From: an uncultured Clostridia bacterium
GTDB lineage: Bacteria; Bacillota; Clostridia; Acetivibrionales; CALMWN01
Reading direction: 5' to 3'
DNA: 45,813 bases
NCBI GenBank assembly: GCA_937873555.1
Contig: CALMWN010000410.1
Location: 1-45,813, forward strand
Shown: positions 16,305 through 45,813 of the stretch, in pieces
Position numbering within the stretch: position 1 is the first letter of the stretch
Layout: the number at the start of each line of letters is the position of its first letter
The notes under the pieces: model-generated
What the model saw: the letters and a program-made list of their open reading frames with translations, nothing else
What the model was told of the DNA's origin: nothing
The model's database searches: none
Program-made: the position numbers and the translations under genes

Positions 16305-16309
16305 GAGTT

Positions 16310-24507: not shown

Positions 24508-25007
24508 ATCATGCTCCCTGGTTAAAATTAACAAGACAACATGTTAAGTATATACGGAATTCCGAATAAAAGCAAGATATTAGGCCTAGAACCACCGTAA
24601 TATGCTCATGAAGCAACTAAAAGAACAGTATATATGAATAAATAAATCGTTTGTTTTATTGTCGGATAGATCAAGTTGCTTTTTGCATGAAAGGAGGAAT
24701 TCAAGTATCAAAAGTAATCGACCTTGACAATCAAAAAGGTGATATGTGATAAATGATCACAGCGGTAGATCAAAGAATCGGTCTTGCATTAAGGATAAAA
24801 AGTTACTGTGAGTGATTAACTGATGGTCATGCAGGACAATAAACAGCAGCAAAAAAAGAGAACCTTCACTGTGATTACAGATCTGGACATTGTATAGACC
24901 TTTTGTTTTTAAGTAAAATATATAAATTGATTTAAAAATTAACTATCATAAACATATAAAACTAGCAATGATTGGCAATAATTTTTATAAAAACATTTGG
25001 TGAGCTT

Positions 25008-27578: not shown

Positions 27579-27586
27579 GGATAAAT

Positions 27587-28077
27587 TATTGCTTTTAGGA
27601 TATGTTTTTGGATTCAGGTTGCCAGATGTTTTTTTAAAAACTGATAATTTAACTAGGGAAAACGATATAAATGTTGTTAAGATTAATTCTGACATTTCGG
27701 GAACAAAACAAAAAAGAAAAAAGCTTGATTTTGAGAATATGAAAATAAGTTTGGAAACATATTTGAATGCTGAACATCCTTTACCAATGATAGAAGTCGC
27801 AGAAAAAATAGGCGTTAATAAGAGGATTATACTAAGATACTTTCCTGATTTATGCAAACAGATTTCAAAAAGATATAAGGAGCATTTAAGCAATAAAAGT
27901 AATCAAAGGAAAGTACATCTTTGCCACATCATTGAAGATGTCATTGAACGTTTGATAAAAGATAATGAGTACCCCAGTAGAAGGAAAATTGAATTAAATT
28001 TACCGGATGGGATAATACTAAAAGATAGTAGGTTTAAATCAATATGGAAATCAAAGCTGGAAGAGTATGGGCTATAA
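27587..28077 (+). pseudogene. tniQ: TniQ paralog 1, 3' part
   Basis: In frame with 25008..25860 once the IS and one duplication copy are removed (853+491 nt = 448 codons). The C-terminal HTH-like segment EVAEKIGVNKRIILRYFPDLCKQISKRY parallels AVAKRLGISVRTIQKRLPDLSRQISKKR of TniQ paralog 2. Confidence 0.75.
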
Positions 28078-28135
28078 AGAATTTTTATCAAAAAGTATTT
28101 GCTTATAAAGTAGGTATGGAAGGTGTCTATTTATT

Positions 28136-31968: not shown

Positions 31969-33364
31969 TAAATATATATCTTTTCAGGATCTTGACTTAG
32001 AGCTTCCGAATTTTTCAAAAAGAAGCAGGTTTTACTCATTGGATCCAATTGGAGTTGGAACACCTAATGTAGAGAACTTTACGAGCTACATTAACAGACT
32101 AGCTATCACACATAAAATTACTGTAAGTAGTCTGTTACAGTGCCTAATAAAAGAGGAGAGGGGAAATAATAGTTCTTTCAATATTCCGCATTTGAATTCA
32201 TTTTATAGAAATAATAGTACTGCTTTAAATGGTGTTAGTAGTAAATCAAATATTTTTTTAACAGCATTTAGTAATCAAGTGTGTAAAAATAATTTATCAA
32301 GTCTAACTTTAGTACCTTGGAGTAGTGTTTTACCTCAACACAACCTTATTAGAAGAATGAAGGGCTATTGCCCATTTTGTTATGAATATTTAAAAAAAAA
32401 TAACATTGAAATTTATGATCTATTATTATGGTCTTTTAGTTCTCTAACTATTTGCCCAGTACATAAAACAAAACTTCAATTTAACTGTACATATCATGAT
32501 TGCGGAAAGGTTCAATATAATTTAGATACTTGTTCGAGACCGGGATACTGCAATAAATGTCATCGTTGGTTAGGAAATGATTTTGCTGATCTAAAAAGAG
32601 ATGAAGAAGTGATGATTAATTTAGATTTCCAAGTTTGGGCTGCAGATCAAATTGGTAAGATAATATCAGAAACGAATAAATTGAAATCTTTACCCAGACG
32701 CGAGAATATTATGATAGCTTTAAATATATTAAAGAATAAGTATTTTAATGATTCTATTCCAAATATTTCAGAATTTTTCAATATACCTATAGCCAGTATA
32801 AGATTTTGGTGTGAAGGTAGGTGGATACCAAACATAGAAGCTTTATTAATAATATGTTATAGAATGCAAATATCTTTATTAGATTTATTAAAATACGGGA
32901 TACTGACAAAAGAATCGGAATGTGTGTTTCATATTGAAAATCAGAATGTGGATTATAAAAGGCGAGATTTTAAAAAAGCTATAATTGATGAAAACAAATT
33001 ACGTACAGATTTGCAAAATATTTTAGATAGCAATGAGATACCACCGCCACCCTTAACTGCAGTCGCAAAAAGGCTTGGTATATCTGTTAGGACAATACAA
33101 AAAAGATTGCCAGATCTGTCTAGGCAAATATCAAAAAAAAGGTTTGAATATAGAAAGTTGGAAAAGACAAAAAGACAAGAACAGTTTTATAAAGAAATAA
33201 AAGCTGCTGTAATTCAAATAACTAATGATGGATTATATCCAAACATTTTAAGAATAAGTGATTATATATCTAAATCACCACTTGTATTTTATGAATTTGA
33301 ATCATTAAAAGTTTGGAGAGAAATAATGGCTGAATTATCTCTTGAGCCTAAAATTGAAAAGTAA
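31934..33364 (+). CDS. tniQ: TniQ-family target selector (paralog 2, intact)
   Basis: RSRFYSLDPIGVGTPNVENFTSYINRLAITH, YCPFC...ICPVH...YCNKCHRWLG. Overlaps the 3' end of tnsC. Confidence 0.8.
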   Translation: MMKLDNWRKQNNKYISFQDLDLELPNFSKRSRFYSLDPIGVGTPNVENFTSYINRLAITHKITVSSLLQCLIKEERGNNSSFNIPHLNSFYRNNSTALNGVSSKSNIFLTAFSNQVCKNNLSSLTLVPWSSVLPQHNLIRRMKGYCPFCYEYLKKNNIEIYDLLLWSFSSLTICPVHKTKLQFNCTYHDCGKVQYNLDTCSRPGYCNKCHRWLGNDFADLKRDEEVMINLDFQVWAADQIGKIISETNKLKSLPRRENIMIALNILKNKYFNDSIPNISEFFNIPIASIRFWCEGRWIPNIEALLIICYRMQISLLDLLKYGILTKESECVFHIENQNVDYKRRDFKKAIIDENKLRTDLQNILDSNEIPPPPLTAVAKRLGISVRTIQKRLPDLSRQISKKRFEYRKLEKTKRQEQFYKEIKAAVIQITNDGLYPNILRISDYISKSPLVFYEFESLKVWREIMAELSLEPKIEK

Positions 33365-33480
33365 TTCTATTTAGAGTAATATCAACTCTATTATAACTCA
33401 GGTATTACTTATATTTTGATATATTTTTAGAAAATGTTATAATATTTATAGAAAAAAATTTATCACAGATAAAAAATTCT

Positions 33481-33595
33481 GGCAAGCTTATGCTTCAAAA
33501 AATTAATCTTGGCAAATATATGCTTCAAAATGCAATATTCTATCTCTTGAAAATAGGTTCAAAGGTACCTTTTTCGGCTAACTTATGGTTCAAAA
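33481..33595 (+). repeat. three direct 20-bp repeats GGCaAnnTTATGcTTCAAAA (candidate transposase-binding sites / transposon end)
   Basis: GGCAAGCTTATGCTTCAAAA at 33481-33500, GGCAAATATATGCTTCAAAA at 33511-33530 and GGCTAACTTATGGTTCAAAA at 33576-33595. A partial copy lies near 33553-33566. Confidence 0.5.
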
Positions 33596-33691
33596 CGTGG
33601 CCACTTTATAATTCAATTCACATGTATTAAAAACGTACGAAATATATAGCTAATAGAAAAGGAAGCAATCCTATTAATTTAAAAAGGGGTA

Positions 33692-34246
33692 ATGAATTTG
33701 AATAAATATTTCAATTCTTTCGACTTGCAATATTATATTTTTTTTAAAGAGTATAAATTTAAGCTTAATCTTATAGGCTTTACAGCTCAATTATTGCCAT
33801 TTTTACTGTTATTCATTTTTATACCGATGGAATATTTATTTAATGAAATTTTCTGGCCGATCCTCTTTGTTGTTTTCGTGCTTACCAGATTTCCACATGA
33901 ATATTTACATAAGTATGGCGGCTACATTATTGGAGTGAAATGCAAATGTGATTTTTTAAAGGTTAACGCCACGTGTACTCCGCTAGCTCCCATATTATGG
34001 TTTCAAGTTGTCATTATTGCAGCTACTCCGTTGATTGTATTGGGAATATTATTCTTAAGTACAATGTTTATATTCTACATTTTAAACCTAAGCTTATGGT
34101 TCTATATTGGGCTGGCATCCTTTTTGCTTTTAATAATATCCTGTGAGGGTGACATTGGATACATTTTCTATGCTCTCAGGTACAAAACGGGCTATGTCTT
34201 TGTTGATGAAGGAATAATGTTGAAGGTTTACAAACATAATATATAA
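33692..34246 (+). CDS. polytopic membrane protein with HExxH (DUF3267-like putative zincin peptidase)
   Basis: Several hydrophobic segments and the motif FPHEYLHKYGG. Confidence 0.45.
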   Translation: MNLNKYFNSFDLQYYIFFKEYKFKLNLIGFTAQLLPFLLLFIFIPMEYLFNEIFWPILFVVFVLTRFPHEYLHKYGGYIIGVKCKCDFLKVNATCTPLAPILWFQVVIIAATPLIVLGILFLSTMFIFYILNLSLWFYIGLASFLLLIISCEGDIGYIFYALRYKTGYVFVDEGIMLKVYKHNI

Positions 34247-34387
34247 TCCTCTTAATTTACGGTGGACAACTAATAAAAGAGGCGGAGTCAAATAAATATC
34301 TTTTAAACAGTTCCATAAATGGAGCAGATGCTAAAGAAATAAGTACCAGGATAAGTACCAAAATGCTTTAGAGATGGAGTTGAAAAA

Positions 34388-34549
34388 ATGAAATGCAAGG
34401 TTACTTTGAACGAAAAATATTATTTAGTTTATTATAATGAAAAGAAAATAATAGGGAAAATAACTATATTAAATGGAAATAGTGAAGAATATACAGATCG
34501 AGAAGAAAACCCCAAACTATATGACGCAATATCTGTAAAATTAAACTAA
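34388..34549 (+). CDS. possible small protein (53 aa)
   Basis: ATG preceded by GGAG about 11 nt upstream. MKCKVTLNEKYYLVYYNEKKIIG... Not in the ORF track because it is under 60 aa. Confidence 0.2.
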   Translation: MKCKVTLNEKYYLVYYNEKKIIGKITILNGNSEEYTDREENPKLYDAISVKLN

Positions 34550-34599
34550 CAACCCTCATATAATAGTTAATTAAATCATTAATTATCAAGGAGTCAATA

Positions 34600-35604
34600 A
34601 TGAACCAGCTATTATTAAAGGAAATTCCTGTATATGTGCAGGAATTTCTAAGACACATTCAAGTTAAAAAAGGAGCTTCTTTGAAAACCGTTGAGGATTA
34701 CTTTTATGAATTACGGCTGTTTTTGAGGCTTTATAAAAAGAATAAAAGTCATCTGCCTTCAGAATCCGGACTTGATAACATAGACATCCTTGACATTCAA
34801 TTGAAAGACTTGGAAAACTTAAAAACAACCGAGCTTACAGAATATTTAGCATATATAAAACCTTTAAAACAAGATAATCCGAAAGCCAATAAAAAATCAA
34901 TTACTAACGATGCTGACAGAGCTCCTGCTAAAAGAACAAAATCAAAGCGTCTGGCCTGTTTGAAATCATTCTTTAATTATTTGGAAATAACTGCAGAGTT
35001 GATAACCCGAAATCCTACACGGAAGGAAAGCCACATAAAGTTAGATAAGAGGGAAGTAAAATACCTGACCGACGAAGAGAGCATCAAGCTTCTGAGTGTA
35101 ATAAAAGGTGAGCACCATCAAAGGGACTATGCAATAATAACATTGTTTTTAGTATGTGCCTTGCGATTGTCTGAATTGGTAGGAATTAATTTGAGCCATA
35201 TCCAGAACAATGTTTTAACAGTAATAGGGAAGGGAGACAAGGAGAGAAAAATACCTCTTTCAGCATCATGTACCAGGGCAATAGATTCTTATAAAAGAGT
35301 ACGTCCCAAAAGCACGCAAGATAAGGATGCACTATTTCTTAGTGAAAGGCTACAAAGAATCAGTAAAAAAACAGTACAGTATATGGTCAAGAAATATATT
35401 GCCGCTGCCGGCCTGGATGTGAAAAAATATTCAACCCATAAACTTCGTCACACTGCAGCAACTCTAATGTATCTGCATGGCAATAAAGACCTCCGGGCCC
35501 TACAGGAACTTCTTGGTCATGAGGATATTTCAACAACTCAGGTGTATACGCATATAAGGGATAAGGAAAAGAGAGATCTGATTAACAGTAACCCTTTGGC
35601 ATGA
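34600..35604 (+). CDS. tyrosine recombinase (XerC/XerD-like or integrase)
   Basis: ALRLSELVGI...HKLRHTAATLMY...LLGHEDISTTQVYTH. AAGGAG lies 7 nt upstream. Confidence 0.85.
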   Translation: MNQLLLKEIPVYVQEFLRHIQVKKGASLKTVEDYFYELRLFLRLYKKNKSHLPSESGLDNIDILDIQLKDLENLKTTELTEYLAYIKPLKQDNPKANKKSITNDADRAPAKRTKSKRLACLKSFFNYLEITAELITRNPTRKESHIKLDKREVKYLTDEESIKLLSVIKGEHHQRDYAIITLFLVCALRLSELVGINLSHIQNNVLTVIGKGDKERKIPLSASCTRAIDSYKRVRPKSTQDKDALFLSERLQRISKKTVQYMVKKYIAAAGLDVKKYSTHKLRHTAATLMYLHGNKDLRALQELLGHEDISTTQVYTHIRDKEKRDLINSNPLA

Positions 35605-35804
35605 ATTATGAATTAGATATCCGTAATAAGAGAGCTCATAAGTAAAAAAATATTTTTTGAATAATTATGTGCTTTTTCATATAAGTAAACGATATAATTA
35701 ATTGTATGAACGTATGTTAAATAATAAATATCATGGCAATTCTACTTCACAAATGAAGGTAGTTTTGTTTCTTTAGAATGCTATAATTTTTAATATTATC
35801 TTCC

Positions 35805-35842
35805 CTCTGATTATACCTAATACAGTTTAGGTATAATCAGAG
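35805..35842. repeat. perfect 16-bp inverted repeat with 6-nt loop
   Basis: CTCTGATTATACCTAA-tacagt-TTAGGTATAATCAGAG, between the convergent recombinase and PLD genes. No U-tract on either side. Confidence 0.8.
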
Positions 35843-35905
35843 AGACTAAAAACGCTCTTTGCGTAGTAGATATTTATTTACCCGAAAACACTAGATATAT
35901 CGAAC

Positions 35906-37456
35906 TTACCAATCAATCCCTAATTCGATTAACATATCATCTTTTTTTATCTCGGTAACATTTCTGTCGATATAATCATTTTTGTTTTTAAATATAGTAT
36001 TATTTTTTATATAATACGTTTTTTTGCTTGATAAAATTATGTCTACCTCGGTTGCTTTCCAGAGCAGTTGATAATCATTATTTTTTATTAATCTTAATAG
36101 CTCCTTTTTACTAAGTTCTCTATCAAAACATTGATTCTTAATACTTGCCATAGACCTATAATACTTGCCTTCATATTTACAGAATATTAGTTGTTTTGAA
36201 GTAAGAGCATCAACTATTTTCATATCACCAAGTTCTATATCAAATACTTTTTCACAATTTGCTTTAACCGCGTGAATAGTGTTTTCAACTGGTTCTTCTT
36301 CAATTAACTGTCCGTTTTTAAATATTTGATAATAGTCTGCAAAATAGACGTACTCAGTACCTAATTCCGTATTAATCTTGAAAAAGGAGCAATTCAACTT
36401 ACGATACTGATTTATTAGTGCGGATATGGAACGAAAATCATAATGGCTTGTATTACTTGTTAGAAATTTACCGAGATCAGCCATAGAGTCATATATTTTA
36501 TCCCTAAAGAGTAGTTTTGTTTTTTCCTTATATTTCTCCTTAACCTCAGATTCCTTGTTTAACTCATCGATTTGGGCTTGAATTTCATTTTTGGACAGCT
36601 TTAAGTAATCATCCTCGAACCGCCATATGTCTCTTTTGTAATGCTCTTTTTTCCCCTTACATACATCACTAATGTATCCATAGCTGCGCTTTGAATAATA
36701 ATACTGTTCAGCGGCCTCTAACATAGAATTGTATCTTACCCCTGTATTTAGGCACACTACAGGTTTCGACAAATGAAGTTTTGCAGATTCATTCATCAAC
36801 TTTAAATGTTCTGGAGATATTACTTTTCCTTTATTAGCATCCGATATTTTCTTTTTCTGCTCATCTGTCGGGCTCCATGAACCTTTATTATTTTTTCTAA
36901 CTTCTCTAGCTTTTTCCATTGGTGTTTTTTTAAATACTTGATCTTCTAAATCCTGAGAGACGGTTGAATCAATTTTATTACCCTGATTATGATTTATTAT
37001 TTCTTTAAACCTATCTAATCTTTCCTTTGTTAATGTTGTGGCAGCTCTCCAATATTCTTCGTATAATTTATTTAGATCATCAAAGCAAGTGTCATCATAG
37101 GGTATTCCAAAATTAATTTCACGGTTATTTTTTAGACCTCCATTCGTAAAATTACTCGATCCTACTATTATATATAATTCATCAAACACAAAAATTTTAG
37201 AATGAAAATTCTGCTCTGTAAAAAATTTTATTGTGATATTTGGATTATTAATTATCTTTTCCAATGCAAAATATGATGTAGCAATGCATAATCGTACAAC
37301 CAATCTTATTTTACTGTTATTATCAATCAACTTATTGAGAAATTCATTTTCGGTGAAAAATGGGGCTGCAATTGATACACGCGGGCAGTTACTATAATTC
37401 AATAAAGTATTTATGAGATAATCTTCTTTATCTATTGAATTGGTAAACAATTCCAT
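35906..37456 (-). CDS. PLD-family (HKD) nuclease fused to NUMOD-type homing-endonuclease DNA-binding modules
   Basis: The N-terminus has HSKIFVFDELYIIVGSSNFT (HxK..D..GSxN). The middle has SPTDEQKKKISDANKGK and SPEHLKLMNESAK (NUMOD3-like), then KPVVCLNTGVRYNSMLEAAEQ...ISDVCKGKKEHYKRDIWRFED (NUMOD1/IENR-like). Further degenerate repeats follow. Confidence 0.65.
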   Translation of the reverse strand: MELFTNSIDKEDYLINTLLNYSNCPRVSIAAPFFTENEFLNKLIDNNSKIRLVVRLCIATSYFALEKIINNPNITIKFFTEQNFHSKIFVFDELYIIVGSSNFTNGGLKNNREINFGIPYDDTCFDDLNKLYEEYWRAATTLTKERLDRFKEIINHNQGNKIDSTVSQDLEDQVFKKTPMEKAREVRKNNKGSWSPTDEQKKKISDANKGKVISPEHLKLMNESAKLHLSKPVVCLNTGVRYNSMLEAAEQYYYSKRSYGYISDVCKGKKEHYKRDIWRFEDDYLKLSKNEIQAQIDELNKESEVKEKYKEKTKLLFRDKIYDSMADLGKFLTSNTSHYDFRSISALINQYRKLNCSFFKINTELGTEYVYFADYYQIFKNGQLIEEEPVENTIHAVKANCEKVFDIELGDMKIVDALTSKQLIFCKYEGKYYRSMASIKNQCFDRELSKKELLRLIKNNDYQLLWKATEVDIILSSKKTYYIKNNTIFKNKNDYIDRNVTEIKKDDMLIELGIDW

Positions 37457-37609
37457 CGTTTCACCTACCCTACAGCCTTAATTTATGTTAAATATTATAA
37501 CAGAAAATGGATTGAAATTTAACCTTGTTGGAGTAGTACCAGCATGCTGATACTTATCTACACTTGTTATAAATAATGATACAATGGTTGGATGTTAAAA
37601 TGTTGCACT

Positions 37610-38023
37610 TTATATCAACTTATTATATATAAACGTAAATCTGAGCCACTCAAAAATTTGAATTAACTCTCGGACTTCATAATTAGGCAGTCGTTTTTTG
37701 TTAGGGTTATTAACTTCTTGATTATGTACATGAAAGGGTTCCGTGACTGTCTGATCTTTTTTATCCGGATGCGATTCGCTATGAAACCTTATATGATCCT
37801 CAGCTCCGTTACAGCGAAACAAATCATAGAAGTATATATCAATTTTGCCGTCTTTAATATATTCCGTAATGTAAAATTTGGAACCATCAATCAAAGTATA
37901 CGTTTTTCTTCTTATAGAATAACTAGAAGGTAATCCAGTCTTATCAAAGTCTTTTTCGTTCTGGATAATATCCTTAAATCTCGCACTAATAAGAGTGAAA
38001 TTCGAAGGCGGCAAATTAGTCAT
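37610..38023 (-). CDS. TumE/DUF6516-like putative toxin
   Basis: The pattern HIRFHSESHPDKKDQTVTEPFHVH...ELIQIFEWL resembles the TumE family as I recall it. The start overlaps the upstream gene by 8 nt. Confidence 0.35.
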   Translation of the reverse strand: MTNLPPSNFTLISARFKDIIQNEKDFDKTGLPSSYSIRRKTYTLIDGSKFYITEYIKDGKIDIYFYDLFRCNGAEDHIRFHSESHPDKKDQTVTEPFHVHNQEVNNPNKKRLPNYEVRELIQIFEWLRFTFIYNKLI

Positions 38024-38654
38024 TCTTCACTCTTTCCAATAGATACTTCCATTCTTCTTCATCACGTTTTTGCTCAGAATTTTTAATATATATTTTCATA
38101 AGAGTGTCTTCATATTTTCCATTGTACTTTTCCTCAAAAAACTTTATTGTTTGCTTAAATGCAGCTGCTTCTTCTTCCAAAGACTGATTTACATACTTCA
38201 ATTGTTCCGATTTCCAAGATTCAACAACAGCCCTTATTGGAATAAGTTCCGTAGTTGCGGATACCCAAAGCACATTATCTGAAATCTTTATTTTCTGATT
38301 TTTTGCTGTTCTTTCAGTTCCAATAAACCGCTTATTATCAATCCAATTATTAATTGTCATTATAGATACACCGAAAAACTTTGCAAGCTCTCCTGTAGTA
38401 TAAGTCTTCACAATAGCCCTGGTCTGTAAATCAAGCATCGCCTTAAGAATCGTATGCATATTAACCTTAAACATGTTTTTGTCAGTAAACATTCTTTCAT
38501 CCAAAGCTATCTTCGTCCCAGGGTAAGTTAAATGTACAAAATTAGACAGGATCTTTACAAATAACTTTCCGTCCGAATTCTTATAAAAAGTATCAGTATA
38601 ATAGTCAACATTCTCAAGAAAATGTTCTTTTTCAACAGATGTAATCATAAACAT
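38016..38654 (-). CDS. HTH DNA-binding protein (excisionase-type HTH), putative regulator or antitoxin
   Basis: YTTGELAKFFGVSIMTINNWIDNKRF. Strong GGAGGTGAGGAG upstream. Confidence 0.5.
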   Translation of the reverse strand: MFMITSVEKEHFLENVDYYTDTFYKNSDGKLFVKILSNFVHLTYPGTKIALDERMFTDKNMFKVNMHTILKAMLDLQTRAIVKTYTTGELAKFFGVSIMTINNWIDNKRFIGTERTAKNQKIKISDNVLWVSATTELIPIRAVVESWKSEQLKYVNQSLEEEAAAFKQTIKFFEEKYNGKYEDTLMKIYIKNSEQKRDEEEWKYLLERVKND

Positions 38655-38841
38655 CACTCCTCACCTCCAATTCTAACACAACTTAAACCCAACTTCAAGG
38701 CACTTAAAAGATACATAAATATAATATGCACATTTTATACGAATTGATATACAGATGCAAAATATTTCCAGGATCGCTTGATTTGTACATTTACACAAAG
38801 ATTCAACAATGCAATATCGATGTTTAGCGGGTTTTACAGCC

Positions 38842-39023
38842 AATGTTGATATGTTTGTGTCCCGGATTCCATGACAGAAAGTTATCAACATTATATTTTT
38901 AGGACACAAAGTTCGCAACATTGTAACCGATCGTTGATATCTTTGTGTCCTGGGCGCATAGTTGCACATTGAATTAATCAATGTTGATAGCATTGTGTCC
39001 TGAATGTTGATATGTTTGTGTCA
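38842..39023. repeat. array of five 21-bp iteron-like repeats AATGTTGATAnnnTTGTGTCC
   Basis: Direct copies at 38842, 38931, 38980 and 39003, and an inverted copy at 38901-38922. A half-site AATGTTGATAAC lies inverted at 38881-38892. Confidence 0.8.
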
Positions 39024-39096
39024 TCCGACATGATTCGTAGCCCGAGGGAAAATACTTATTATATAGATAATAATCGAATAGTTTTATTTTGTTGCA

Positions 39097-39136
39097 ACAA
39101 AAAAGCAGCCACGAAGACAGATCTTCGCAGCTGCTT
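39097..39136 (-). terminator. rho-independent terminator
   Basis: The GCAGCCACGAAG/CTTCGCAGCTGC hairpin is followed on the minus strand by TTTTTTGTTG. Downstream of 39233..39508. Confidence 0.6.
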
Positions 39137-39232
39137 TAGAAAGTATTTAATACTTAGATTTTTATTGAATATTTATAAAATATTTGGTAAAATTTAATTG
39201 AGGGCAAACGATGCCTTGGGTTTAGTTGATAA

Positions 39233-39508
39233 TTATTTAATGTATATGCGGCAAGAAGCGCGTCGGAGCTTTTTACCGCATTTTACTTTTACAGAAAACG
39301 ATTCATCTTTTTCTTTTGATGTCTTTATCATTATGTAGGAATCCGCGTTCTCTGCCTCTGGTACTTCCGTTTTTCGCTGAATTTTATGTAGTACAATATT
39401 GGATACAACTCCGGATATTATCTTCGCGATAACTTCTCTTGTTGTATACAATAAAAAGCTTACTACAGAAGGTAGTAAATAAATAAGCCATACAAGTTGC
39501 TCCTTCAT
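39233..39508 (-). CDS. small membrane-anchored protein, unknown function
   Basis: AAGGAGG lies 6 nt upstream. N-terminal TM segment LVWLIYLLPSVVSFLLY. Confidence 0.6.
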   Translation of the reverse strand: MKEQLVWLIYLLPSVVSFLLYTTREVIAKIISGVVSNIVLHKIQRKTEVPEAENADSYIMIKTSKEKDESFSVKVKCGKKLRRASCRIYIK

Positions 39509-39685
39509 ACAACGTCCTCCTTTGTTCTTTAATCTTAGATAAGAAACCCACCGGCATCGTCACGCCCTCATATTAAGTGGTCTTATAAGATATCAAAGGA
39601 GGAAGGAATTTGCTACATATAAGCTGCGTTCGGGCTAACCCCTAACCCTTTATTTTAATAAACCTTTACTTTCAAGAATAGCAAG

Positions 39686-39713
39686 AAAAAACCATGTTGC
39701 TAGAAACATGGTT
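39686..39713 (-). terminator. rho-independent terminator
   Basis: 9-bp stem AACCATGTT/AACATGGTT followed by a T-run on the minus strand. Confidence 0.6.
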
Positions 39714-39763
39714 ATGAAATAAACCGGATACTGTTGTGGAGATAGAAACATATTATCAACTCC

Positions 39764-40312
39764 TTAAACCAATAGAGGTTCTTTTATAGGGTTTAATGAA
39801 CAAATAAAATTATCTTTCTGCTTCCCATAATAAAAGCTTTCTAAGCGTAAGCTCCTGAATTTAGAGAAATACATAACCTGATCACTTTCTGGAAATGTTT
39901 TTATACAAGTCTCAAATTCATCAAGTTGTGTAGAATCCAACAGGATCTCTTCCCCTTCTTTCAGTACATCCCAAATTTTCTTCGGAGATGTGACACCGGT
40001 TATCAAAAGGCGAAATTCCATAATCAATCTATTGTCTGCATTCCCGACAGGCTTTGCGTACCATTTGATACTATTATTATCAAATATGTAGTGACTGGCC
40101 CTGTCAAAAGACAACCAGTTTCCCTTGCCTCCATTTGCCTTGGAAAACTCATTATCTTTGTCTTCAAAAATTGCAGTATAGACTCCAACTTTCTTGGTAA
40201 TGGTAACCTCCCGTATTTGACCAACACATTGAGGTTTTTGATGGTCTATGACTTTAAAAGTCACACCTTTTCTTAGAGCCTTTTTCATCTGCTCCAGATT
40301 ATTAATTTTCAT
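39764..40312 (-). CDS. hypothetical protein
   Basis: 182 aa. GGAGG lies 9 nt upstream. No recognisable motif. Confidence 0.6.
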   Translation of the reverse strand: MKINNLEQMKKALRKGVTFKVIDHQKPQCVGQIREVTITKKVGVYTAIFEDKDNEFSKANGGKGNWLSFDRASHYIFDNNSIKWYAKPVGNADNRLIMEFRLLITGVTSPKKIWDVLKEGEEILLDSTQLDEFETCIKTFPESDQVMYFSKFRSLRLESFYYGKQKDNFICSLNPIKEPLLV

Positions 40313-40352
40313 TCAACTCATCCTCCTTATAATTTAATTTCACAGAATACTG

Positions 40353-40859
40353 CTAAAAACACTCTTCCTTCTGCCTTGCTCCTATTTCTGCGTACCAGGG
40401 CTGAATCCAATCAAACCATTCCTCGTCGCTTTTCTCAAGCGATAATTGGCCCAGATCCGCAGATTCATACCTGTATAGCTTCAATTCCCCACTTAATTTC
40501 GCCCTCAGCAAGTAAAACCATTTAAGCTCATACATAATGGACAATTTGTCAGCATAACATAGTTTGCTTGGCTTTACCAGATGACGTTTGGCATAATTTC
40601 TACTATGGTACAAGCAAAGGTAGAAATATTCACAGCCAAACCACTTATTAGCCATCAGCGCAGCTTTTTCAGGATGATTACTTCCAACCTTCCCATCCAT
40701 ATCCGGCGAACCCCAATAGCCCCAGTCATGAATGATTATACATATCAGTTCTTTAAAACTCGGTCTTCCATAAAGCCATTTCCATGCCATATAAACCGTT
40801 ATTGGGTGCCAAATAAACTGATGTACACCAATCAGTAAGCTCCTGGTTCCTACTTTCAC
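40353..40859 (-). CDS. hypothetical protein, possibly an HD-type metal-dependent hydrolase
   Basis: GTG start behind GAGGAGGGG. The H...IIHDWGYWG...NHPE...YHSR spacing is reminiscent of HD-domain ligands (weak). Confidence 0.5.
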   Translation of the reverse strand: MKVGTRSLLIGVHQFIWHPITVYMAWKWLYGRPSFKELICIIIHDWGYWGSPDMDGKVGSNHPEKAALMANKWFGCEYFYLCLYHSRNYAKRHLVKPSKLCYADKLSIMYELKWFYLLRAKLSGELKLYRYESADLGQLSLEKSDEEWFDWIQPWYAEIGARQKEECF

Positions 40860-40917
40860 TTATACCCCTCCTCTCTACAAAATGTTTTGAATCGTTATTC
40901 TATTGAATTATTGCAAC

Positions 40918-40946
40918 AAAAAAACCGCTAACGAATGTTAACGGTT
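40918..40946 (-). terminator. rho-independent terminator inside a 5' leader
   Basis: AACCGTTAAC-attc-GTTAGCGGTT followed by T7 on the minus strand. It lies between the promoter at 41039-41067 and the gene start at 40859. Confidence 0.65.
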
Positions 40947-41031
40947 ATATCCTATTTAATCTATCTGCCCATGAATCCCAGGGACTTTAAATATAAAGGT
41001 ATTGAAATACCATTTAGTAAAAAACAATTAA
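40947..41031 (-). promoter_or_regulatory. conserved leader RNA element, copy A
   Basis: The core 40966-41025 is shared with 45719-45776. On the minus strand it reads TTTTTTACYAAATG, a variable segment, then TATATTAAAGTCCCTGGNATTCATGGGCA. Confidence 0.55.
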
Positions 41032-41038
41032 TATAGTG

Positions 41039-41067
41039 ATTATACTATAACTAGAAAATTTTTTCAA
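41039..41067 (-). promoter_or_regulatory. sigma-A promoter driving leader copy A
   Basis: On the minus strand: TTGAAA (41062-41067), 17-nt spacer, TATAAT (41039-41044). Confidence 0.6.
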
Positions 41068-41404
41068 CAAAAAAGGTAGGGAGTAGAAGTCATAATCGAC
41101 CTCTCCCCCTACCTGCAAGCAAACACATATATTATTTGAAATTAACTTTGGATTAAACTTATACCTGCTTCAAATAGATATCTCTATAATTAATTATACT
41201 ACCGCTCATGAATTATCAATTCTGCCACCATACTCCGGCATATCTTCATATAGCTCACAACGGGCATCTACACCTTGCCAATACCAATCTGGCAATTTCT
41301 CAGCGTCCATATATAATCCTCCTTCATGTTGTGTATTTAGCATTATTTGTGGACATTACTTTAATATATACAAATAATGTTAAAAGAATTACAAGCCTAT
41401 ATCT

Positions 41405-41836
41405 TCATACCTCAACTCCGAAGTTCTCCTTCAGGTATTTCTTGCACTCCTCGACATCAACCTCTACCTTAACCTCTGCATCTGAATCTTCACTCTCATC
41501 ATCTTCGGCCCAAAATCTCCAGTCTATCTTAAGTTCCGGTACTGAAGATTCTTCAAGCTGAATAGGTATCAATACAGGTAATAACACCTCTTGCAGATAC
41601 TCCTGATCTGTACACTTGAATACGAATCCATACGAAGTATTCAAAAAGAATTGGTCGAGTTCTGTAGTAATAGTTATTTCAGGCACATATTGGGTAGCCT
41701 GTATTATCCCTGCAATTTGTTCCGGATTTTTCTCAATCACCAATGCCGGTGCACGATTACCATTACTATCATAGATATAAACTAATAATTTTTCATCCCT
41801 CACTAAACTCATCCTCCTTATAATTTGATTAATCAT
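41405..41836 (-). CDS. hypothetical protein with acidic C-terminal region
   Basis: The ATG overlaps the stop of the radical-SAM gene (ATGA). Contains WAEDDESEDSDAEVKVEVDVEE. Confidence 0.6.
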   Translation of the reverse strand: MINQIIRRMSLVRDEKLLVYIYDSNGNRAPALVIEKNPEQIAGIIQATQYVPEITITTELDQFFLNTSYGFVFKCTDQEYLQEVLLPVLIPIQLEESSVPELKIDWRFWAEDDESEDSDAEVKVEVDVEECKKYLKENFGVEV

Positions 41837-42489
41837 AGGCCTCTAGCGCAGTATTCGCATTCCGGATTTCGTCTGAGCTCTTCCATGATTGCAAACACTG
41901 ATTCCTTTGACTGCGGTTCGGCTTCCTCCCTGTGCAGCTGGATAACAAACTTTCTGCAACCGGCTACCGACTTACTGATCTCATGTATGTCTTCCCCTGT
42001 CAGTCCTGGAACAAGAGTAGTACGGAATTCATGGTCTACACCACTTTCAGATATGAGCTTGATTGATTTTTCTATCTTTCTGGTATCCACACTGCAGCCG
42101 ACAATCTCCTCATACCTGTGAATGGGCGCCTTGATGTCCATAGCCACGTAGTCCAGAACCGGGAGGACTTCTTCAAGAACTTCCGGATTGGTACCATTTG
42201 TGTCCAGTTTTACCATAAAGCCCAGCATTTTAAGCCTTATTACAAAAGTGTAAAGGTCTTTATAAATAGTTGGTTCACCGCCGCTAATACATATAGCATC
42301 AAGCTTTCCAATCCTAGACTTAAGGAAGCTGAAAACCTCGTCCTGAGATATAAGTTGAGTGCCTAAGGTTTCCTTACTGAAGCAATAAGCGCAATTTAAG
42401 TTGCACCCCTTCGTATATACAACTCCACATATCTTGCCAGGATAGTCCTCATTGCTCGTTTTAGTAATAGCTGAATAATACATTATCAA
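41833..42489 (-). CDS. NrdG-type (class III RNR activase-like) radical SAM protein
   Basis: DYPGKICGVVYTKGCNLNCAYCFS, ISGGEPTIY, KLDTNGTNPEVLEEV, DYVAMDIKAP, EFRTTLVPGL. This is the pattern of the about 230-aa NrdG2-type activases. Confidence 0.75.
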   Translation of the reverse strand: MIMYYSAITKTSNEDYPGKICGVVYTKGCNLNCAYCFSKETLGTQLISQDEVFSFLKSRIGKLDAICISGGEPTIYKDLYTFVIRLKMLGFMVKLDTNGTNPEVLEEVLPVLDYVAMDIKAPIHRYEEIVGCSVDTRKIEKSIKLISESGVDHEFRTTLVPGLTGEDIHEISKSVAGCRKFVIQLHREEAEPQSKESVFAIMEELRRNPECEYCARGL

Positions 42490-42582
42490 TATCCCCTTTT
42501 CGTCTATTTACTTAGTTGTTTATAATTTTACGAAAGGCATGTTTTTGGCTTCATACCGTGCATATGGTCATACTTGCTGCAA

Positions 42583-42969
42583 TTACTTTTTGCACTCGCA
42601 TTTTATGTCTTTATTGATTGGCTCCCCAAGCAGAGACTTTAAAAGTTTACCTGCTACAAGATCCTCCCAATAAAGCCCATCAAGCCTTATTTCCCTTAAT
42701 GTTTCGCATTGCTTATATTCAGCAATCACTACATTGTACAGGTCCAATCTCTCATCAAGTTCTACTGTAAACATATAGCCATGTACTACAGGAAGTTCGG
42801 TACCCGTGACAGGATCCATCTCCATCCTGATAGTGGTATACTTGACGATTAAGTTGCCTTTATGCTGCTGGTATGAAACCTTATAACCTTTAATACCAGC
42901 TCCATCACCCGAATAACCGTTTAAATACCTCCATGTTTTTGCTGCTTCTTGTATTTGATACGCATCCAT
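42583..42969 (-). CDS. hypothetical protein
   Basis: GGGAGG SD upstream. 128 aa, no motif recognised. Confidence 0.6.
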   Translation of the reverse strand: MDAYQIQEAAKTWRYLNGYSGDGAGIKGYKVSYQQHKGNLIVKYTTIRMEMDPVTGTELPVVHGYMFTVELDERLDLYNVVIAEYKQCETLREIRLDGLYWEDLVAGKLLKSLLGEPINKDIKCECKK

Positions 42970-43002
42970 AAATAAACATCCTCCCTTTAACCAAATTAGG
43001 CT

Positions 43003-43440
43003 TTAGTCCATGATGATATTCCCTTTTCTGTCCAGAATCCTGATATCATCAATACTGCCGCATTTCATAATAAGCTTCCTCATCTCCATTTCACTAACAC
43101 TATGGTAATACAAAAATATGGAATATATCTTGTCACTGTCCCCGAAGCTGACTCTGATATCCCAGGTAGAATCATAAAAAGGAGTGTAGGCAACACATTT
43201 CAATTCATGGATAGTTGCCTCTTTTTCAGTACCCGCTTTCATCTTCATACCATATAGGAGTGACAAATCACCCTTCAGGGATTCATTCAAGTATCCATAA
43301 TTTGCGGAATAGTACTCAACCAGCTCATTAAGTAAACTGATTACAGTAAAATCCTTTCTCTCAATAGCCATATTTATCGCCTTTGAGATGTTTTCATAAG
43401 TCACATTCCTTATAAAATTCATAGCCTCGCTGCTCAACAT
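43003..43440 (-). CDS. hypothetical protein
   Basis: ATG at 43440 lies 7 nt after GGGGG. 145 aa. Confidence 0.6.
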   Translation of the reverse strand: MLSSEAMNFIRNVTYENISKAINMAIERKDFTVISLLNELVEYYSANYGYLNESLKGDLSLLYGMKMKAGTEKEATIHELKCVAYTPFYDSTWDIRVSFGDSDKIYSIFLYYHSVSEMEMRKLIMKCGSIDDIRILDRKGNIIMD

Positions 43441-43477
43441 CAAAATACCCCCATTTGCACTGATAATTGGTATAAAT

Positions 43478-43515
43478 ACACAGGGGGATAAATAACTTTA
43501 TTTATCCCCCTGTGT
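43478..43515. repeat. perfect 18-bp inverted repeat (38-bp palindrome)
   Basis: ACACAGGGGGATAAATAA-ct-TTATTTATCCCCCTGTGT, intergenic between two co-directional minus-strand genes. Confidence 0.85.
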
Positions 43516-43524
43516 GTGTCTTTT

Positions 43525-44451
43525 TCAGCAATTAGCAAACTGCTCCTTAACTGCTGAAACCTTTGTATTGACTAATTCATAGTTTTCAATGCAGGCATCG
43601 CAATATCCAAGATTCCTTTGGCTCTCATCATTGGACATTTCACCACCGCAGTCTTTGCAGGCGCTGAATTTGGCTGCATCAAGAAACCCCTTAGTGCTTT
43701 TGTAATAGAAATTATGTATCGTCGGATACCCCCGGCTTAAAATTGCTTTTTCGCAAAGCTGGAAGGTATCGTCATAAATTTTTCCGAGTAGGCTGACAAA
43801 ATCCGACTCGATAAAATCCATTGCCAAGATTTCTAACGTCTCGCACAAATCAAGGTCCTTATAATGCTCGCCCACTATCAAGCTTTTCTCTATAAAAGGC
43901 TTGTCCCCATAAGAATTCAGGACTTCACTGTACTGAGGATACAAGTTTCGCAGCAACATAGCCGTGGTATGATCCACCCCAAATCTGGCATAATGGCAGC
44001 AGTTACATTTAAAAAGTGTGCACCGTCGGTCATTAACCCATTGCTCTCCAATTGCTTTGGCATGGATTATGGTCTTATTCTTTTCCTGGCACTCAACCTT
44101 GTAGTTGTATATGCCGTTATGGTACAAAAAAACCGGTTCATGTTGTATGCCCGGATAAGTAGGAAGCGTATGCTTGCTATATTCAGTTGTACCAAAACCC
44201 GTTCTCGACTCTATGGGGATGGGAACATTGAAAATAATGTCAGTAATACCCGCGTATTTCTTATCAAACGAATAGATAGTATCAGGATTATTGAGCATCC
44301 TTTCAAGACTGTCATCATATTCCCCGTCATAATACCCTTTATAACCGAGCTCCTTAATTTTCAAGAGATCTTCCCGGCTAAAAAAGCATTCATCAATGAC
44401 ACCAATTTTAATTTCTTCCCCACTTGTCGGGTGTCTTACGATTTCACCCAT
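43525..44451 (-). CDS. Cys-rich hypothetical protein
   Basis: GGGAGG SD upstream. 308 aa with the clusters CNCCHY and CKDCGG...CDAC. Confidence 0.65.
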   Translation of the reverse strand: MGEIVRHPTSGEEIKIGVIDECFFSREDLLKIKELGYKGYYDGEYDDSLERMLNNPDTIYSFDKKYAGITDIIFNVPIPIESRTGFGTTEYSKHTLPTYPGIQHEPVFLYHNGIYNYKVECQEKNKTIIHAKAIGEQWVNDRRCTLFKCNCCHYARFGVDHTTAMLLRNLYPQYSEVLNSYGDKPFIEKSLIVGEHYKDLDLCETLEILAMDFIESDFVSLLGKIYDDTFQLCEKAILSRGYPTIHNFYYKSTKGFLDAAKFSACKDCGGEMSNDESQRNLGYCDACIENYELVNTKVSAVKEQFANC

Positions 44452-44499
44452 AATTAAATCAACCTCCCTTTGATTACAAAATTAAACCATTAATAACTT

Positions 44500-44889
44500 T
44501 CAGATTGCGCTTGAAAATTTTAGTCTTGAAGCAAATCTTGAAGCAATCTTTTTGATAATCCAAAAGTCCACGGGCATGATTTTCAGCCCTGGGACAGTAT
44601 AGACATTAAAATTGTTGAAGTCCATATTACAGTACTCGGCAATTTTCTCATGCAAAACGTCTTCCTCACCCACTCTGCAGGAAATGATACCGACTTTGTA
44701 ATAATTACTTCCGAACAATTTCCAGACTTCGTATTCCATGACATTTACAGGGCTTAAGTTGCATGTGAAAAGAAGATTCCCTGATTCATAATATTCATGG
44801 CAAGGCCTGGCGCTGTCAAGAAGCGCAGCAACAGTTTTTTTCACTGCCTCAGAAGGTATTAAAGCTGGTTTCTCCGCTAATGCGTACAT
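44500..44889 (-). CDS. hypothetical protein, paralog of 44903..45292
   Basis: Shares C.EYYE.G.LL....S......EYEVWK.F...YY with the neighbouring gene. Confidence 0.6.
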   Translation of the reverse strand: MYALAEKPALIPSEAVKKTVAALLDSARPCHEYYESGNLLFTCNLSPVNVMEYEVWKLFGSNYYKVGIISCRVGEEDVLHEKIAEYCNMDFNNFNVYTVPGLKIMPVDFWIIKKIASRFASRLKFSSAI

Positions 44890-44902
44890 TCATCACCACT
44901 CC

Positions 44903-45292
44903 TTAGTATTCATCTAAAATTTTTTTGATTATTATTTTCTTTTCCTCCCACTGCTTCATAGGCATTTCTTTTAATATGCCTATGCCTTCGCAGTATTTTC
45001 CAAGCTTATTAAAATCAAATTTATCCTCGTTGTATACCAGTAGTAAATATTCCAGTCTATCCAAGTCCATCCAAGATACTGTAAGTCTCTCAAACCTGTA
45101 AAAAGTATTACTGAATTTCTTCCATACTTCATACTCTTGAGCTCCATTCTCGGACGTAGAGATATTAATCAGTAGAAGCTCTCCCACTTCAAAATATTCT
45201 CCTGGACAAAAGGTCCTTTTTGTTAGCATCTGCGAAAGATCCTTCAGCTTCTCCTCTGTTGTGTCCCCTTTTGGTTCCGTCTTAACGTGCAT
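44903..45292 (-). CDS. hypothetical protein, paralog of 44500..44889
   Basis: AAGGAGGG lies 9 nt upstream of the ATG at 45292. Confidence 0.6.
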   Translation of the reverse strand: MHVKTEPKGDTTEEKLKDLSQMLTKRTFCPGEYFEVGELLLINISTSENGAQEYEVWKKFSNTFYRFERLTVSWMDLDRLEYLLLVYNEDKFDFNKLGKYCEGIGILKEMPMKQWEEKKIIIKKILDEY

Positions 45293-45382
45293 AATCAAAT
45301 CACCCTCCTTTGAAAAAAATTGAAAATATGATATAATAAAAAACAGGAAAGATGCTTTTCAGCACCAATCCTGTTTTTCTGG

Positions 45383-45523
45383 TTAGGGGCGGCTATTTCG
45401 GGATAGCCGTCTTTTGTTTTTCCGACATCTGCGTACTCTTTGTGAGAAGAAGCTGTACAAAGCAACAAGCCCTGCAGCTATCCCAACAATTTTCGCTAAT
45501 GCGGACAACACCAAAGACAACAT
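45383..45523 (-). CDS. 46-aa single-TM peptide with strongly basic tail
   Basis: AAGGAGGTG lies 5 nt upstream of the internal ATG of the 78-aa ORF. MLSLVLSALAKIVGIAAGLVALYSFF then SQRVRRCRKNKRRLSRNSRP. Confidence 0.6.
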   Translation of the reverse strand: MLSLVLSALAKIVGIAAGLVALYSFFSQRVRRCRKNKRRLSRNSRP

Positions 45524-45621
45524 ACCGTTCACCTCCTTTCGGTGACTCAGGCAGCCATATATTGCTATATAACTGCCCTTATCATCGAAATAAAGATAAT
45601 AACCGGCACCACAAACCAAAT

Positions 45622-45660
45622 ATAAAAAGCCGCAGGCTCAAAGAACTTGCGGCTTTTTTG
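45622..45660. terminator. bidirectional-looking rho-independent terminator
   Basis: 8-bp stem AAGCCGCA/TGCGGCTT flanked by A5 and T6. Confidence 0.55.
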
Positions 45661-45661
45661 C

Positions 45662-45695
45662 AAATAAAAAACCCATCAAACAGATGTCTGACGGG
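45662..45695 (-). terminator. rho-independent terminator after leader copy B
   Basis: On the minus strand: CCCGTCA...TGATGGG (7 bp, one G-U pair) followed by TTTTTTATTT. Confidence 0.55.
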
Positions 45696-45796
45696 ATCAA
45701 TCTCCATAAAACCAAATATGCCCATGAATACCAGGGACTTTAATATACTTGCGTTAACACACATTTGGTAAAAAACTTAAACATAGACACATTATA
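45696..45796 (-). promoter_or_regulatory. conserved leader RNA element, copy B, with its -10 box
   Basis: Core 45719-45776 is homologous to copy A. TATAAT lies at 45791-45796 on the minus strand. The -35 would fall beyond the window end. Confidence 0.5.
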
Positions 45797-45813
45797 TAAT
45801 ACTTTTATAAAAA

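Follow-up and report, generated by a model that had tools for sequence, protein, structure and literature searches.

Why should a strong promoter be followed, before the first gene of its operon is reached, by a strong intrinsic terminator? The question is posed by a 45,813-nt stretch of DNA from an uncultured Clostridia bacterium (contig CALMWN010000410.1 of assembly GCA_937873555.1; the whole stretch is called the window below), in which a sequence-only reading noticed, twice, a conserved promoter-leader-terminator module in front of minus-strand operons and proposed that it represents either a family of ~115-nt small RNAs (sRNAs) or a conditional termination/antitermination switch. Judged from its sequence, the module is a self-contained expression cassette that stands before most operons of a family of integrative elements in Clostridia. 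We give slightly better than an even chance to its being a cis-acting attenuator leader, in which a conserved hairpin of the nascent transcript, designated HP2, would recruit a factor or RNA polymerase (RNAP) itself for antitermination.

Anatomy and distribution of the module

Both copies in the window are confirmed: A at 41067-40916 and B at 45796-45666, each on the minus strand. The promoter, leader blocks, hairpin and terminator of copy A are all found where the sequence-only reading had placed them. The copy starts with a σA-type promoter (TTGAAA-17-TATAAT, 41039..41067) that agrees with consensus at 11 of 12 positions. The 5' block GTTTTTTACTAAATG (41011..41025), composed of a U-tract and a UAC(C/U)A motif (TTTTTTACTAAATG at 41024-41011), begins 13 nt past the -10 hexamer and runs into a first hairpin, HP1 (GGUAU-uuca-AUACC, 40998..41011), the pairing of which is kept among members of the family while its sequence varies. 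The conserved block AAAGTCCCTGGGATTCATGGGCA (40966..40988) constitutes HP2, with a conserved base, G-(U)-CCC/GGG-C, and a variable apical part. A spacer (40947..40965) containing semi-conserved AUAGGAUAUAA just 5' of the terminator (similar strings are found in members D, F, J and K) leads to the intrinsic terminator (40916..40946), which consists of a 10-bp stem and 4-nt loop (40946-40923) and a run of 7 T (40922-40916), with a folding energy of -12.2 kcal/mol for spacer and hairpin together. The T-run lies 57 nt before the GTG start of the next gene at 40859, in agreement with the ~60 nt first estimated.

Copy B has the same order of parts and a near-identical core. Its -10 hexamer, TATAAT, occupies 45791..45796, and the -35 hexamer, TTGAAC, lies 17 nt upstream, past the end of the window (the complete promoter, TTGAAC-17-TATAAT, is at 3805-3833 of L001, the metagenome contig from which this part of the window derives). 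The 5' block GTTTTTTACCAAATG (45762..45776; TTTTTTACCAAATG at 45775-45762), HP1 (GUGU-guua-ACGC, 45751..45762), the conserved block with HP2, AAAGTCCCTGGTATTCATGGGCA (45719..45741), and an intrinsic terminator (45666..45695) with a 10-bp stem and 6 T (hairpin 45695-45672) follow. The terminator stems of A and B do differ, as had been remarked, and the alignment of whole copies has ~70% column identity. The core TTAAAGTCCCTGGNATTCATGGGCA occurs twice in the window when up to 3 mismatches are allowed, and in none of 100 dinucleotide-preserving shuffles.

An absence of further homologues had been counted in advance against the proposal; ten were found, and the family now comprises 12 distinct members, A to L, in five element lineages. 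Members C and D lie 3.1 kb apart on one JGI metagenome contig (L060). The same contig is also present in ERZ27245621 and JGI 3300022551, the samples that hold window sequence, and is likely to be part of the genome or element from which the window comes. No protein similarity between the window element and this contig is detectable; their sole similarity is in the modules (71% over ~135 nt). The contig encodes an HD protein, a δ'-like protein and a DnaX-like clamp-loader subunit, and DnaX homologues at 39-51% identity (to the DnaX of locus L062) lead to syntenic elements in other samples. These have in common an HD–holB–dnaX core, and one of them is in an NCBI metagenome-assembled genome annotated as Clostridia bacterium (GCA_050251575.1). 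A covariance-model search of related elements, suggested at the outset as a check, was done with a model built from A-D only, and detects E-L in four of the HD–holB–dnaX elements: E and F in L070 (53 and 41 bits), H, J and K in L083 (33-36 bits), L in L085 (30 bits), G in L071 (24 bits) and I, also in L083 (22 bits). G and I were accepted on their HP2 core, consensus promoter and position and context, and not on score. A scan of ~1 Mb for the motif AG-T/A-CC…GGCA followed by a T-run recovers 11 of the 12 members, together with three isolated strings judged to be chance occurrences; copy A falls outside this pattern because a G follows its GGGCA.

Elsewhere the module was not found. An exact-pattern scan for the core gave no match in 185,579 species genomes (one per GTDB species) and none in IMG/VR, where one match to a shorter pattern sits inside a GC-rich coding region and is attributed to chance. 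Copy A yields only chance-level blastn matches among 50,697 phage and 72,556 plasmid records. Homologues of the 168-aa protein encoded after copy A were followed to 57 genome loci and 4 further contigs, and neither nhmmer nor the covariance model finds the module in any of these, which implies that the module is not tied to that gene. Control jumbo-phage contigs with distant relatives of the HD protein and a control chromosomal dnaX–ybaB–recR locus are also without it. To date the module is seen in a single family of integrative elements of Clostridia, known from metagenomes.

One further segment of the window, 39100-39201 (minus strand), gives a weak covariance-model match (25 bits) that is within noise. 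It contains TTTTACCAAAT, identical to the copy B 5' block, followed by a small hairpin, CTAAAG and a strong terminator; neither HP2 nor the promoter is present there. The segment may be a decayed fifth copy.

The 12 members share an anatomy that is constant in plan and variable in detail. All have near-consensus σA promoters (with an extended -10, TGn, in seven), a predicted RNA of 114-131 nt and a U-tract; most also have the UAC motif or a close approach to it. In A-D the U-rich tract reads G-UUUUUU-A, starts 13-14 nt past the -10 hexamer and is followed by UAC(C/U)A. The linear block is GUUUUUUAC(U/C)A in A-C, with variants in D-G, and UUUUUU…GAGUACC in the group H-L. HP1 is separated by 5-10 nt from the conserved block, AAG-(U/A)-CCC-(U)…(A)-GGG-C-A-(U), and this by a 17- to 30-nt spacer, often with a AUGGAUAUAA-like sequence, from the terminator (in A-D, 26-28 nt separate the U-block from HP2, and 41-49 nt separate HP2 from the T-run). 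The conserved leader 5' of the terminator spans ~65-75 nt. The terminators have stems of 9-15 bp followed by 5-7 U, with energies of -12 to -21 kcal/mol (spacer and hairpin). In nine members, D to L, the start codon is 27-38 nt past the T-run, with a conserved AGGAGG ribosome-binding region (for example AAATTTAAGGAGGTTGATTTATTATG) in between; in A, B and C, 56-180 nt separate the terminator from the next gene. At one HD–holB–dnaX locus (L061) an IS200/605-type element (Y1 transposase, terminal hairpin CCACCCGCTAAGCGGGTGG) at positions 1-175 directly precedes the HD gene, and all that is left of a module before that gene is the ribosome-binding segment from behind the terminator, ATTTATTAATCAAATTTAAGGAGG; the insertion seems to have split a module.

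Leader structure and dependence on read-through

Common folding of A-D with RNAalifold gives three hairpins. In a MAFFT alignment of these four sequences two-sided changes are seen in 5 of 5 HP1 pairs and in 4 of 9 terminator pairs, and 94% of cells are paired (as against 33-55% when the partners are slid). In an alignment of 13 rows that was fitted to the model, is biased towards it and contains two dubious rows, two-sided changes are seen in 15 of 20 pairs (5/5 in HP1, 9/9 in the terminator) and 93% of cells are paired. By these measures HP1 and the terminators covary as RNA helices. The presence of G-U pairs in HP1, HP2 and the terminators implies that the helices are specific to the sense strand. 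HP2 has an invariant base, and its apical part differs in sequence and may be as short as a 4-nt loop (UAUA, GUAU) or as long as an 11-nt segment, so that the HP2 core measures 16-22 nt and the distance between its half-sites shifts by up to 6 nt. In members I and J an A replaces U at position 2, which fits a bulged base at this place (a G-C closing pair, a bulge, then CCC/GGG).

The variable half-site distance favors a hairpin over a site for a dimeric DNA-binding protein, and this bears on the possibility that the conserved block acts as DNA, either as an operator or roadblock for an element repressor (like EGeRS2 of plasmid p576) or as a recombinase site. The block is indeed an imperfect palindrome, and the single base that varies among A-D adjoins its dyad centre; moreover, operator-bearing promoters precede several variable establishment operons on Gram-positive plasmids (PMC8708921). 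A DNA site would not, however, be expected to tolerate the variation in core length, nor would it account for HP1 and terminators that covary as helices with G-U pairs. In addition, the p576 operator motif, TTATCCCnnTTATCCC, is found 9 times against 5.9 expected (chance level) and never at or near a module. A function at the DNA level is accordingly rated as highly improbable.

A small-molecule riboswitch, with HP1 and HP2 making up the aptamer and the terminator serving as expression platform, would fit the leader-plus-terminator layout as well as the clustering of conserved nucleotides in and around HP2. Against it stand the small number of those nucleotides, the functional disparity of the genes downstream (replication, methylase, radical SAM and unknowns) and the absence of a match to any known class. 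The sequence-only reading had recognized no known riboswitch here, and this is borne out: no Rfam 15 family (riboswitches, T-box, PyrR, EAR and known sRNAs among them) reaches its gathering score in the window or in L061, L070, L071, L083, L085 and L086, and at E ≤10 the segment 40700-41300 has only chance-level matches (14-22 bits, with thresholds of 35-90). Nor is there any pairing between the conserved part and the terminator: when the leaders are folded without the 3' arm of the terminator, no alternative helix competing with the terminator is shared among them. This makes a classical antiterminator/terminator switch, or a riboswitch platform, unlikely (the riboswitch very much so), and fits attenuation that is mediated by a factor rather than by mutually exclusive structures.

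Three other structural or coding features were considered and discarded. A closing helix around HP1 and HP2 is inconsistent between copies; a binding site for CsrA is suggested only by GGA in a loop of copy A; and the ATG that might begin a leader peptide occurs in A and B but in neither C nor D, and has no Shine-Dalgarno sequence before it. The last point, together with the placement of the 23-nt conserved block between covarying stems and its lack of codon periodicity, also bears on the idea that the two copies are a duplicated fragment of a decayed gene, an alternative that had been named when the module was first noticed. A 139-aa open reading frame (ORF) on the opposite strand does overlap copy B and is called as a gene in L001, but no equivalent overlies A, C or D. 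The idea thus finds no support; with 12 members in five lineages and no match in shuffled sequence, chance fares no better, and next to no probability is assigned to either.

How do genes located behind a strong terminator come to be expressed? In A-D the interval from terminator to first gene contains no promoter-like site (9 or more of 12 positions), and this, together with the short distance from T-run to start codon in 9 of the 12 members, implies that the downstream genes need read-through. At the same time, the combination of strong terminators with near-consensus promoters implies that a short RNA should accumulate by default. The latter is an attraction of regarding the module as a free-standing gene for a trans-acting sRNA of ~115-120 nt, operating by base-pairing or by titration of a protein, with the downstream genes transcribed independently; the gaps of 56-180 nt after the terminators of A, B and C would give scope for that. 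In the other nine members there is no room for a promoter, and the gaps of A-D contain no promoter-like site. Furthermore, the conserved nucleotides are mostly paired instead of forming an open seed, and no complementary target of the core exists on either strand of the window (≤3 mismatches). We regard the sRNA gene as improbable. Of the two options originally proposed, therefore, the conditional leader is the one to gain support (from ten homologues, RNA lengths of 114-131 nt, paired but variable terminators and coupling to read-through), while a purely trans-acting sRNA is disfavored, even though a short terminated RNA is still to be expected.

The first downstream gene differs in every copy, and includes an HD-like 168-aa protein, a toxin-like peptide, DUF2442/Uma2/methylase genes, unknowns followed by E2/JAB, HD–holB–dnaX, RadC and others. 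This diversity implies that the module is a general operon head-piece rather than a pathway-specific sensor. The product of the gene after copy A, the 168-aa protein (40353..40859, minus strand; no Pfam assignment, and no promoter-like site before its ribosome-binding site), belongs to a widespread family with 591 database matches, found on mobile elements and distinguished by invariant His and Asp residues (HDWGYW motif). Some of its homologues, at 51-70% identity, are in Mu-like prophages near Mor/GemA, and one is beside SSB and ArdC; its similarity to an HD-domain oxygenase (PDB 6npa) is marginal and non-significant (E = 0.056). For the 207-aa protein encoded behind copy D the database offers no homologue except itself.

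The operons contain terminators beyond those of the module. In operon B a second terminator-like hairpin read from the sequence (GCCGCA…TGCGGC followed by TTTTT and preceded by an A-run, 45624..45653, minus strand; a terminator scan flagged a smaller overlapping hairpin) directly follows the module's own, and others come after a small peptide ORF and as a strong internal hairpin; operon A has one internal terminator. Serial terminators after the leader are the layout of processive antitermination systems (PMC8191782, PMC12691694).

The small peptide ORF just after copy B (45383-45523, minus strand) specifies 46 aa; its N-terminal half is hydrophobic and its tail rich in Arg and Lys (MLSLVLSALAKIVGIAAGLVALYSFFSQRVRRCRKNKRRLSRNSRP). 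Its 3' end is overlapped by a convergent antisense unit (45310-45421, plus strand) with its own promoter (TTGAAA-16-(TG)TATAAT, 45310-45337) and terminator (45385-45414). Peptide and antisense RNA together look like a type I toxin-antitoxin pair.

Proposed antitermination and its precedents

The working of the module as an attenuator leader would be as follows. A strong host-type (σA) promoter fires and a leader of ~115-130 nt is transcribed, comprising a U-rich start, the variable HP1 and the conserved GC-rich HP2 (AAG-U/A-CCC…GGGCA). RNAP would then meet the strong intrinsic terminator, at which most transcripts would end by default as a short RNA, and genes after the module would be made only on read-through. 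HP2 in the nascent RNA would be the recognition element for the factor that lets RNAP ignore the terminator, this factor being an RNA-binding antiterminator or RNAP itself. Most operons of an element, including the HD–holB–dnaX replication operon, would in this way come under one switch. We infer RNA production, conditional read-through and the mediating role of HP2 from the arrangement of parts, which is best fitted by factor-mediated, possibly processive, antitermination nucleated by HP2. Direct action of the RNA on RNAP, or the use of a host factor, would explain the constancy of HP2 across elements that are otherwise divergent. The non-template motif TTNTTT is the mark of NusG-dependent pauses in Bacillus, and the conserved U-tract at ~+8 to +15 resembles it; a pause at this place, giving time for a factor to load, is a matter of speculation.

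The module appears, by analogy, to be closest in its working to the leader elements of the LoaP, nut and put class. The LoaP hairpin is bound after it leaves RNAP and is required for read-through (PMC12691694). As in the module, the LoaP leaders (of the dfn and mln operons of Bacillus velezensis) place a small, near-identical RNA hairpin in several operon leaders, with an intrinsic terminator after each hairpin and more terminators inside the operons. The differences are several. The LoaP hairpin has a UNCG-type tetraloop, whereas in the module it is the stem base that is conserved and the apical loop that varies: none of the loops of HP2 (GNAUU, AUAAUUA, UAUA, GUAU, AACC, CACA, AUUA and others) or of HP1 (UUCA, GUUA, AUUUU and others) is UNCG. 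The targets of LoaP are polyketide clusters, those of the module are mobile-element operons. LoaP itself is a NusG paralogue, and no NusG/KOW domain is found among the screened proteins of the window, L001, L060 and L061, where the elements are incomplete.

The nut sites of phage λ, at which the N protein acts, and the put sites of HK022 are likewise repeated cis-acting RNA sites located just after strong early promoters of a mobile element, and combine a linear element with a short GC hairpin. The CCCU-loop-AGGG of the module resembles λ boxB (GCCCU-GAAAA-AGGGC). put consists of two adjacent stem-loops that act in cis on RNAP without a protein factor, and a two-hairpin layout is also what the module presents. 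There is no sequence homology between the module and nut or put. The boxA consensus is CGCUCUUA or UGCUCUUUAACA; the U-rich/UAC block of the module is not a boxA, and its hairpin loop is not a conserved GNRA-like pentaloop. Moreover, nut and put are present at two sites per element, while the module is present at up to four or more, and with the terminator as part of the conserved cassette. nut also entails an arginine-rich N-like protein. The 46-aa peptide after copy B is Arg/Lys-rich in its C-terminal part but hydrophobic in its N-terminal half, and no protein conserved across the elements fits the description of an N-like protein.

Mobile-element antitermination in Gram-positive bacteria provides further comparisons. 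conAn (of the pLS20 family) and canT (of Tn916) are cis-acting RNAs that let RNAP pass several terminators (PMC8191782, PMC11658703). conAn2 is a 260- to 600-nt element flanked by 20-bp inverted repeats and situated directly after the conAn1 gene (PMC8191782), and canT needs at least 341-452 nt of RNA (PMC11658703). Both are thus far longer than the ~65 nt of conserved leader in the module (which is set apart from conAn by the published description), and both have a single copy per element, placed at the start of one long operon, unlike a module that is repeated before most operons. Instead of a fixed conAn1 gene, each of the modules A, B, C and D has a different gene upstream: a small 34- to 45-aa ORF (with a 132-aa protein before it) for A, a SHOCT protein for B, a 63-aa ORF for C and a methylase for D. 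The EGeRS1 and EGeRS2 sequences of the pLS20 and p576 plasmids share with the module the property of being conserved regulatory sequences repeated before variable operons of Gram-positive mobile elements. EGeRS1, at 400-750 bp, GC-rich and devoid of a promoter, is otherwise unlike it; EGeRS2 comprises a strong σA promoter with Reg operators (TTATCCCnnTTATCCC) for a ribbon-helix-helix repressor (PMC8708921).

Two other classes of RNA element can be set aside. In ANTAR targets two hairpins stand in tandem, each with a hexaloop that has A at position 1 and G at position 4, and the second hairpin overlaps the terminator; the loops of the module are 4-5 nt or variable, and HP2 ends 17-30 nt before the terminator stem. 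Type III toxin-antitoxin (ToxI-like) units have tandem repeats between promoter and terminator and a fixed toxin gene downstream; the leader has no tandem repeats, and the genes downstream differ from copy to copy. The module fails defining features of each known family against which it could be tested, and would, as a leader of the antitermination kind, be a new variant.

It is also conceivable that nothing is switched, and that the module is a constitutive mobile promoter-terminator-ribosome-binding-site cassette, spread and shuffled by recombination, in which a leaky terminator sets a low, fixed output and HP2 serves RNA stability, processing or as a recombination hot-spot. A precedent is at hand in the PeSLs of T4-type phages, composite promoter/terminator motifs that recur as short promoter-and-stem-loop units in the gaps separating variable gene cassettes, the modular shuffling of which they probably favor (PMC2839356, PMC4122927). 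The same unit, complete with its ribosome-binding region, does stand before unrelated genes, the gene content of the elements is mosaic, and no regulator is found among the screened proteins of the window, L001, L060 and L061. PeSLs, though, are ordered terminator-then-promoter, belong to Gram-negative phages and have no conserved leader hairpin in between. Strong terminators behind near-consensus promoters would, furthermore, be wasteful unless read-through were regulated, and the HP2 base is invariant among elements whose DnaX proteins are only 39-51% identical to that of L062. Invariance across such divergent elements implies a specific recognition partner. We hold the constitutive cassette to be unlikely, though it keeps appreciable weight.

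Several observations weigh against the attenuator reading. All of the evidence is computational, and every member belongs to a single element family, sampled on metagenomic contigs. Two of them, G and I, score (at 24 and 22 bits) inside the range of ordinary terminators in the control loci, 20-28 bits. Since the HP2 base never varies, this hairpin lacks classical covariation support (the sole support of such a kind comes from member L, in which one C and one G are lost together to give CC/GG), and the register of its CCC/GGG pairing is ambiguous. The gaps after A and B exceed those of most members. Finally, no candidate antiterminator emerges: the proteins common to the elements, on contigs that are incomplete for them, are the HD, δ' and DnaX proteins only, and there is no NusG/KOW, N-like or other antiterminator-type domain among the proteins of the four sequences covered by this screen (the window, L001, L060 and L061; the ORFs of L070, L071, L083, L085 and L086 were compared only mutually). 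The regulator of an attenuator leader could be encoded outside the incomplete element contigs.

Genomic surroundings and wider meaning

Loci L061, L070, L071, L083, L085 and L086 have in common the HD (YhaM-like) protein, the δ'-like protein and the DnaX-like clamp-loader subunit, to which single elements add integrases, SSB, RadC, a C5 methylase, radical SAM or Prok-E2/JAB/ThiF genes. No description of HD–holB–dnaX integrative elements was found in the literature, and these loci apparently constitute an undescribed family of such elements in Clostridia.

In the window, the module region (39031-45813) contains genes mostly without assignment and one radical SAM protein. Within this region, a terminator-like hairpin read from the sequence (GGTAGGGGGAG…CTCCCTACC and a T-run, 41069..41113, minus strand) directly adjoins the copy A -35 hexamer and closes the operon before it; a simple terminator scan missed it because its loop is too long for the scan. 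The source metagenome contig (ENA ERZ27245621, k141_15871) is 100% identical to window positions 30353-45813 and encodes, past the window end, a SHOCT protein, ArdC, DUF7567 and ThyX. A 6.2-kb JGI contig (sample 3300022551) is 100% identical to the same ERZ27245621 contig and corresponds to 39607-45813 of the window. Positions 1-77 of L001 are an Illumina/Nextera adapter (…CAAGCAGAAGACGGCATACGAGAT…CTGTCTCTTATACACATCT, reverse complement) at the start of the source contig, an assembly artefact in the public record.

To the left of ~39030 are a Tn7-like transposition module, an integrase, a PLD-like gene and a TumE/helix-turn-helix (HTH) pair, and farther left polysaccharide genes and many insertion sequences. 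The Tn7-like module (24972-38657) includes a TnsA-TnsB fusion (28136-30796), TniB/TnsC (30796-31968) and TniQ (31934-33364), with a second TniQ (24972-25907) adjoining an IS66 transposase; its probable cargo is the integrase, the PLD/DrmC-like protein and the TumE toxin with its HTH partner. Upstream of the HTH/TumE gene pair, and adjoining the module region, six copies of an 18-nt repeat, GACACAAAnATATCAACA, are present in both orientations within 180 bp (38844-39022). They could serve as operators or iterons or mark a transposon end, such as that of the Tn7-like element; no array matching these repeats was found near the tnsAB gene. Two direct repeats of at least 300 nt, 100% identical and spaced by 2976 bp (10266-10565 and 13242-13541), duplicate the beginning of a pair of nearly identical HprK-like/ABC-like ATPase genes (10328-11479 and 13304-14464). 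Three tyrosine-recombinase genes in tandem, followed by an IstB-like ATPase fragment, occupy 15069-18305, a segment that, with its ISL3, IS66 and DDE_5 fragments and MetRS gene, looks like a dump of mobile DNA.

What the module would add to the biology of these bacteria depends on how it is read. The RNA elements known to override terminators are few (nut, put, EAR, conAn2, canT and the LoaP hairpin), and most of these are long or poorly defined. Our more specific proposal, offered tentatively and at rather less than an even chance, is that HP2 is a new nut/TAR-like antitermination hairpin of ~16-22 nt, read by an RNA-binding factor or by RNAP, and that it provides one switch for essentially all operons of undescribed Clostridial elements with their own clamp-loader genes (HD–holB–dnaX). 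As a candidate it is compact and sharply defined, and its 12 natural variants distinguish fixed nucleotides (AAG-U/A-CCC…GGGCA) from free ones. If the proposal is correct, the module would be a tractable model for element-wide antitermination control in Clostridia, a marker for finding the HD–holB–dnaX element family and, as a promoter-leader-terminator-ribosome-binding-site unit, a small genetic part for engineering. If read-through is instead constitutive, the module would be the Gram-positive counterpart of the PeSLs of T4-type phages.

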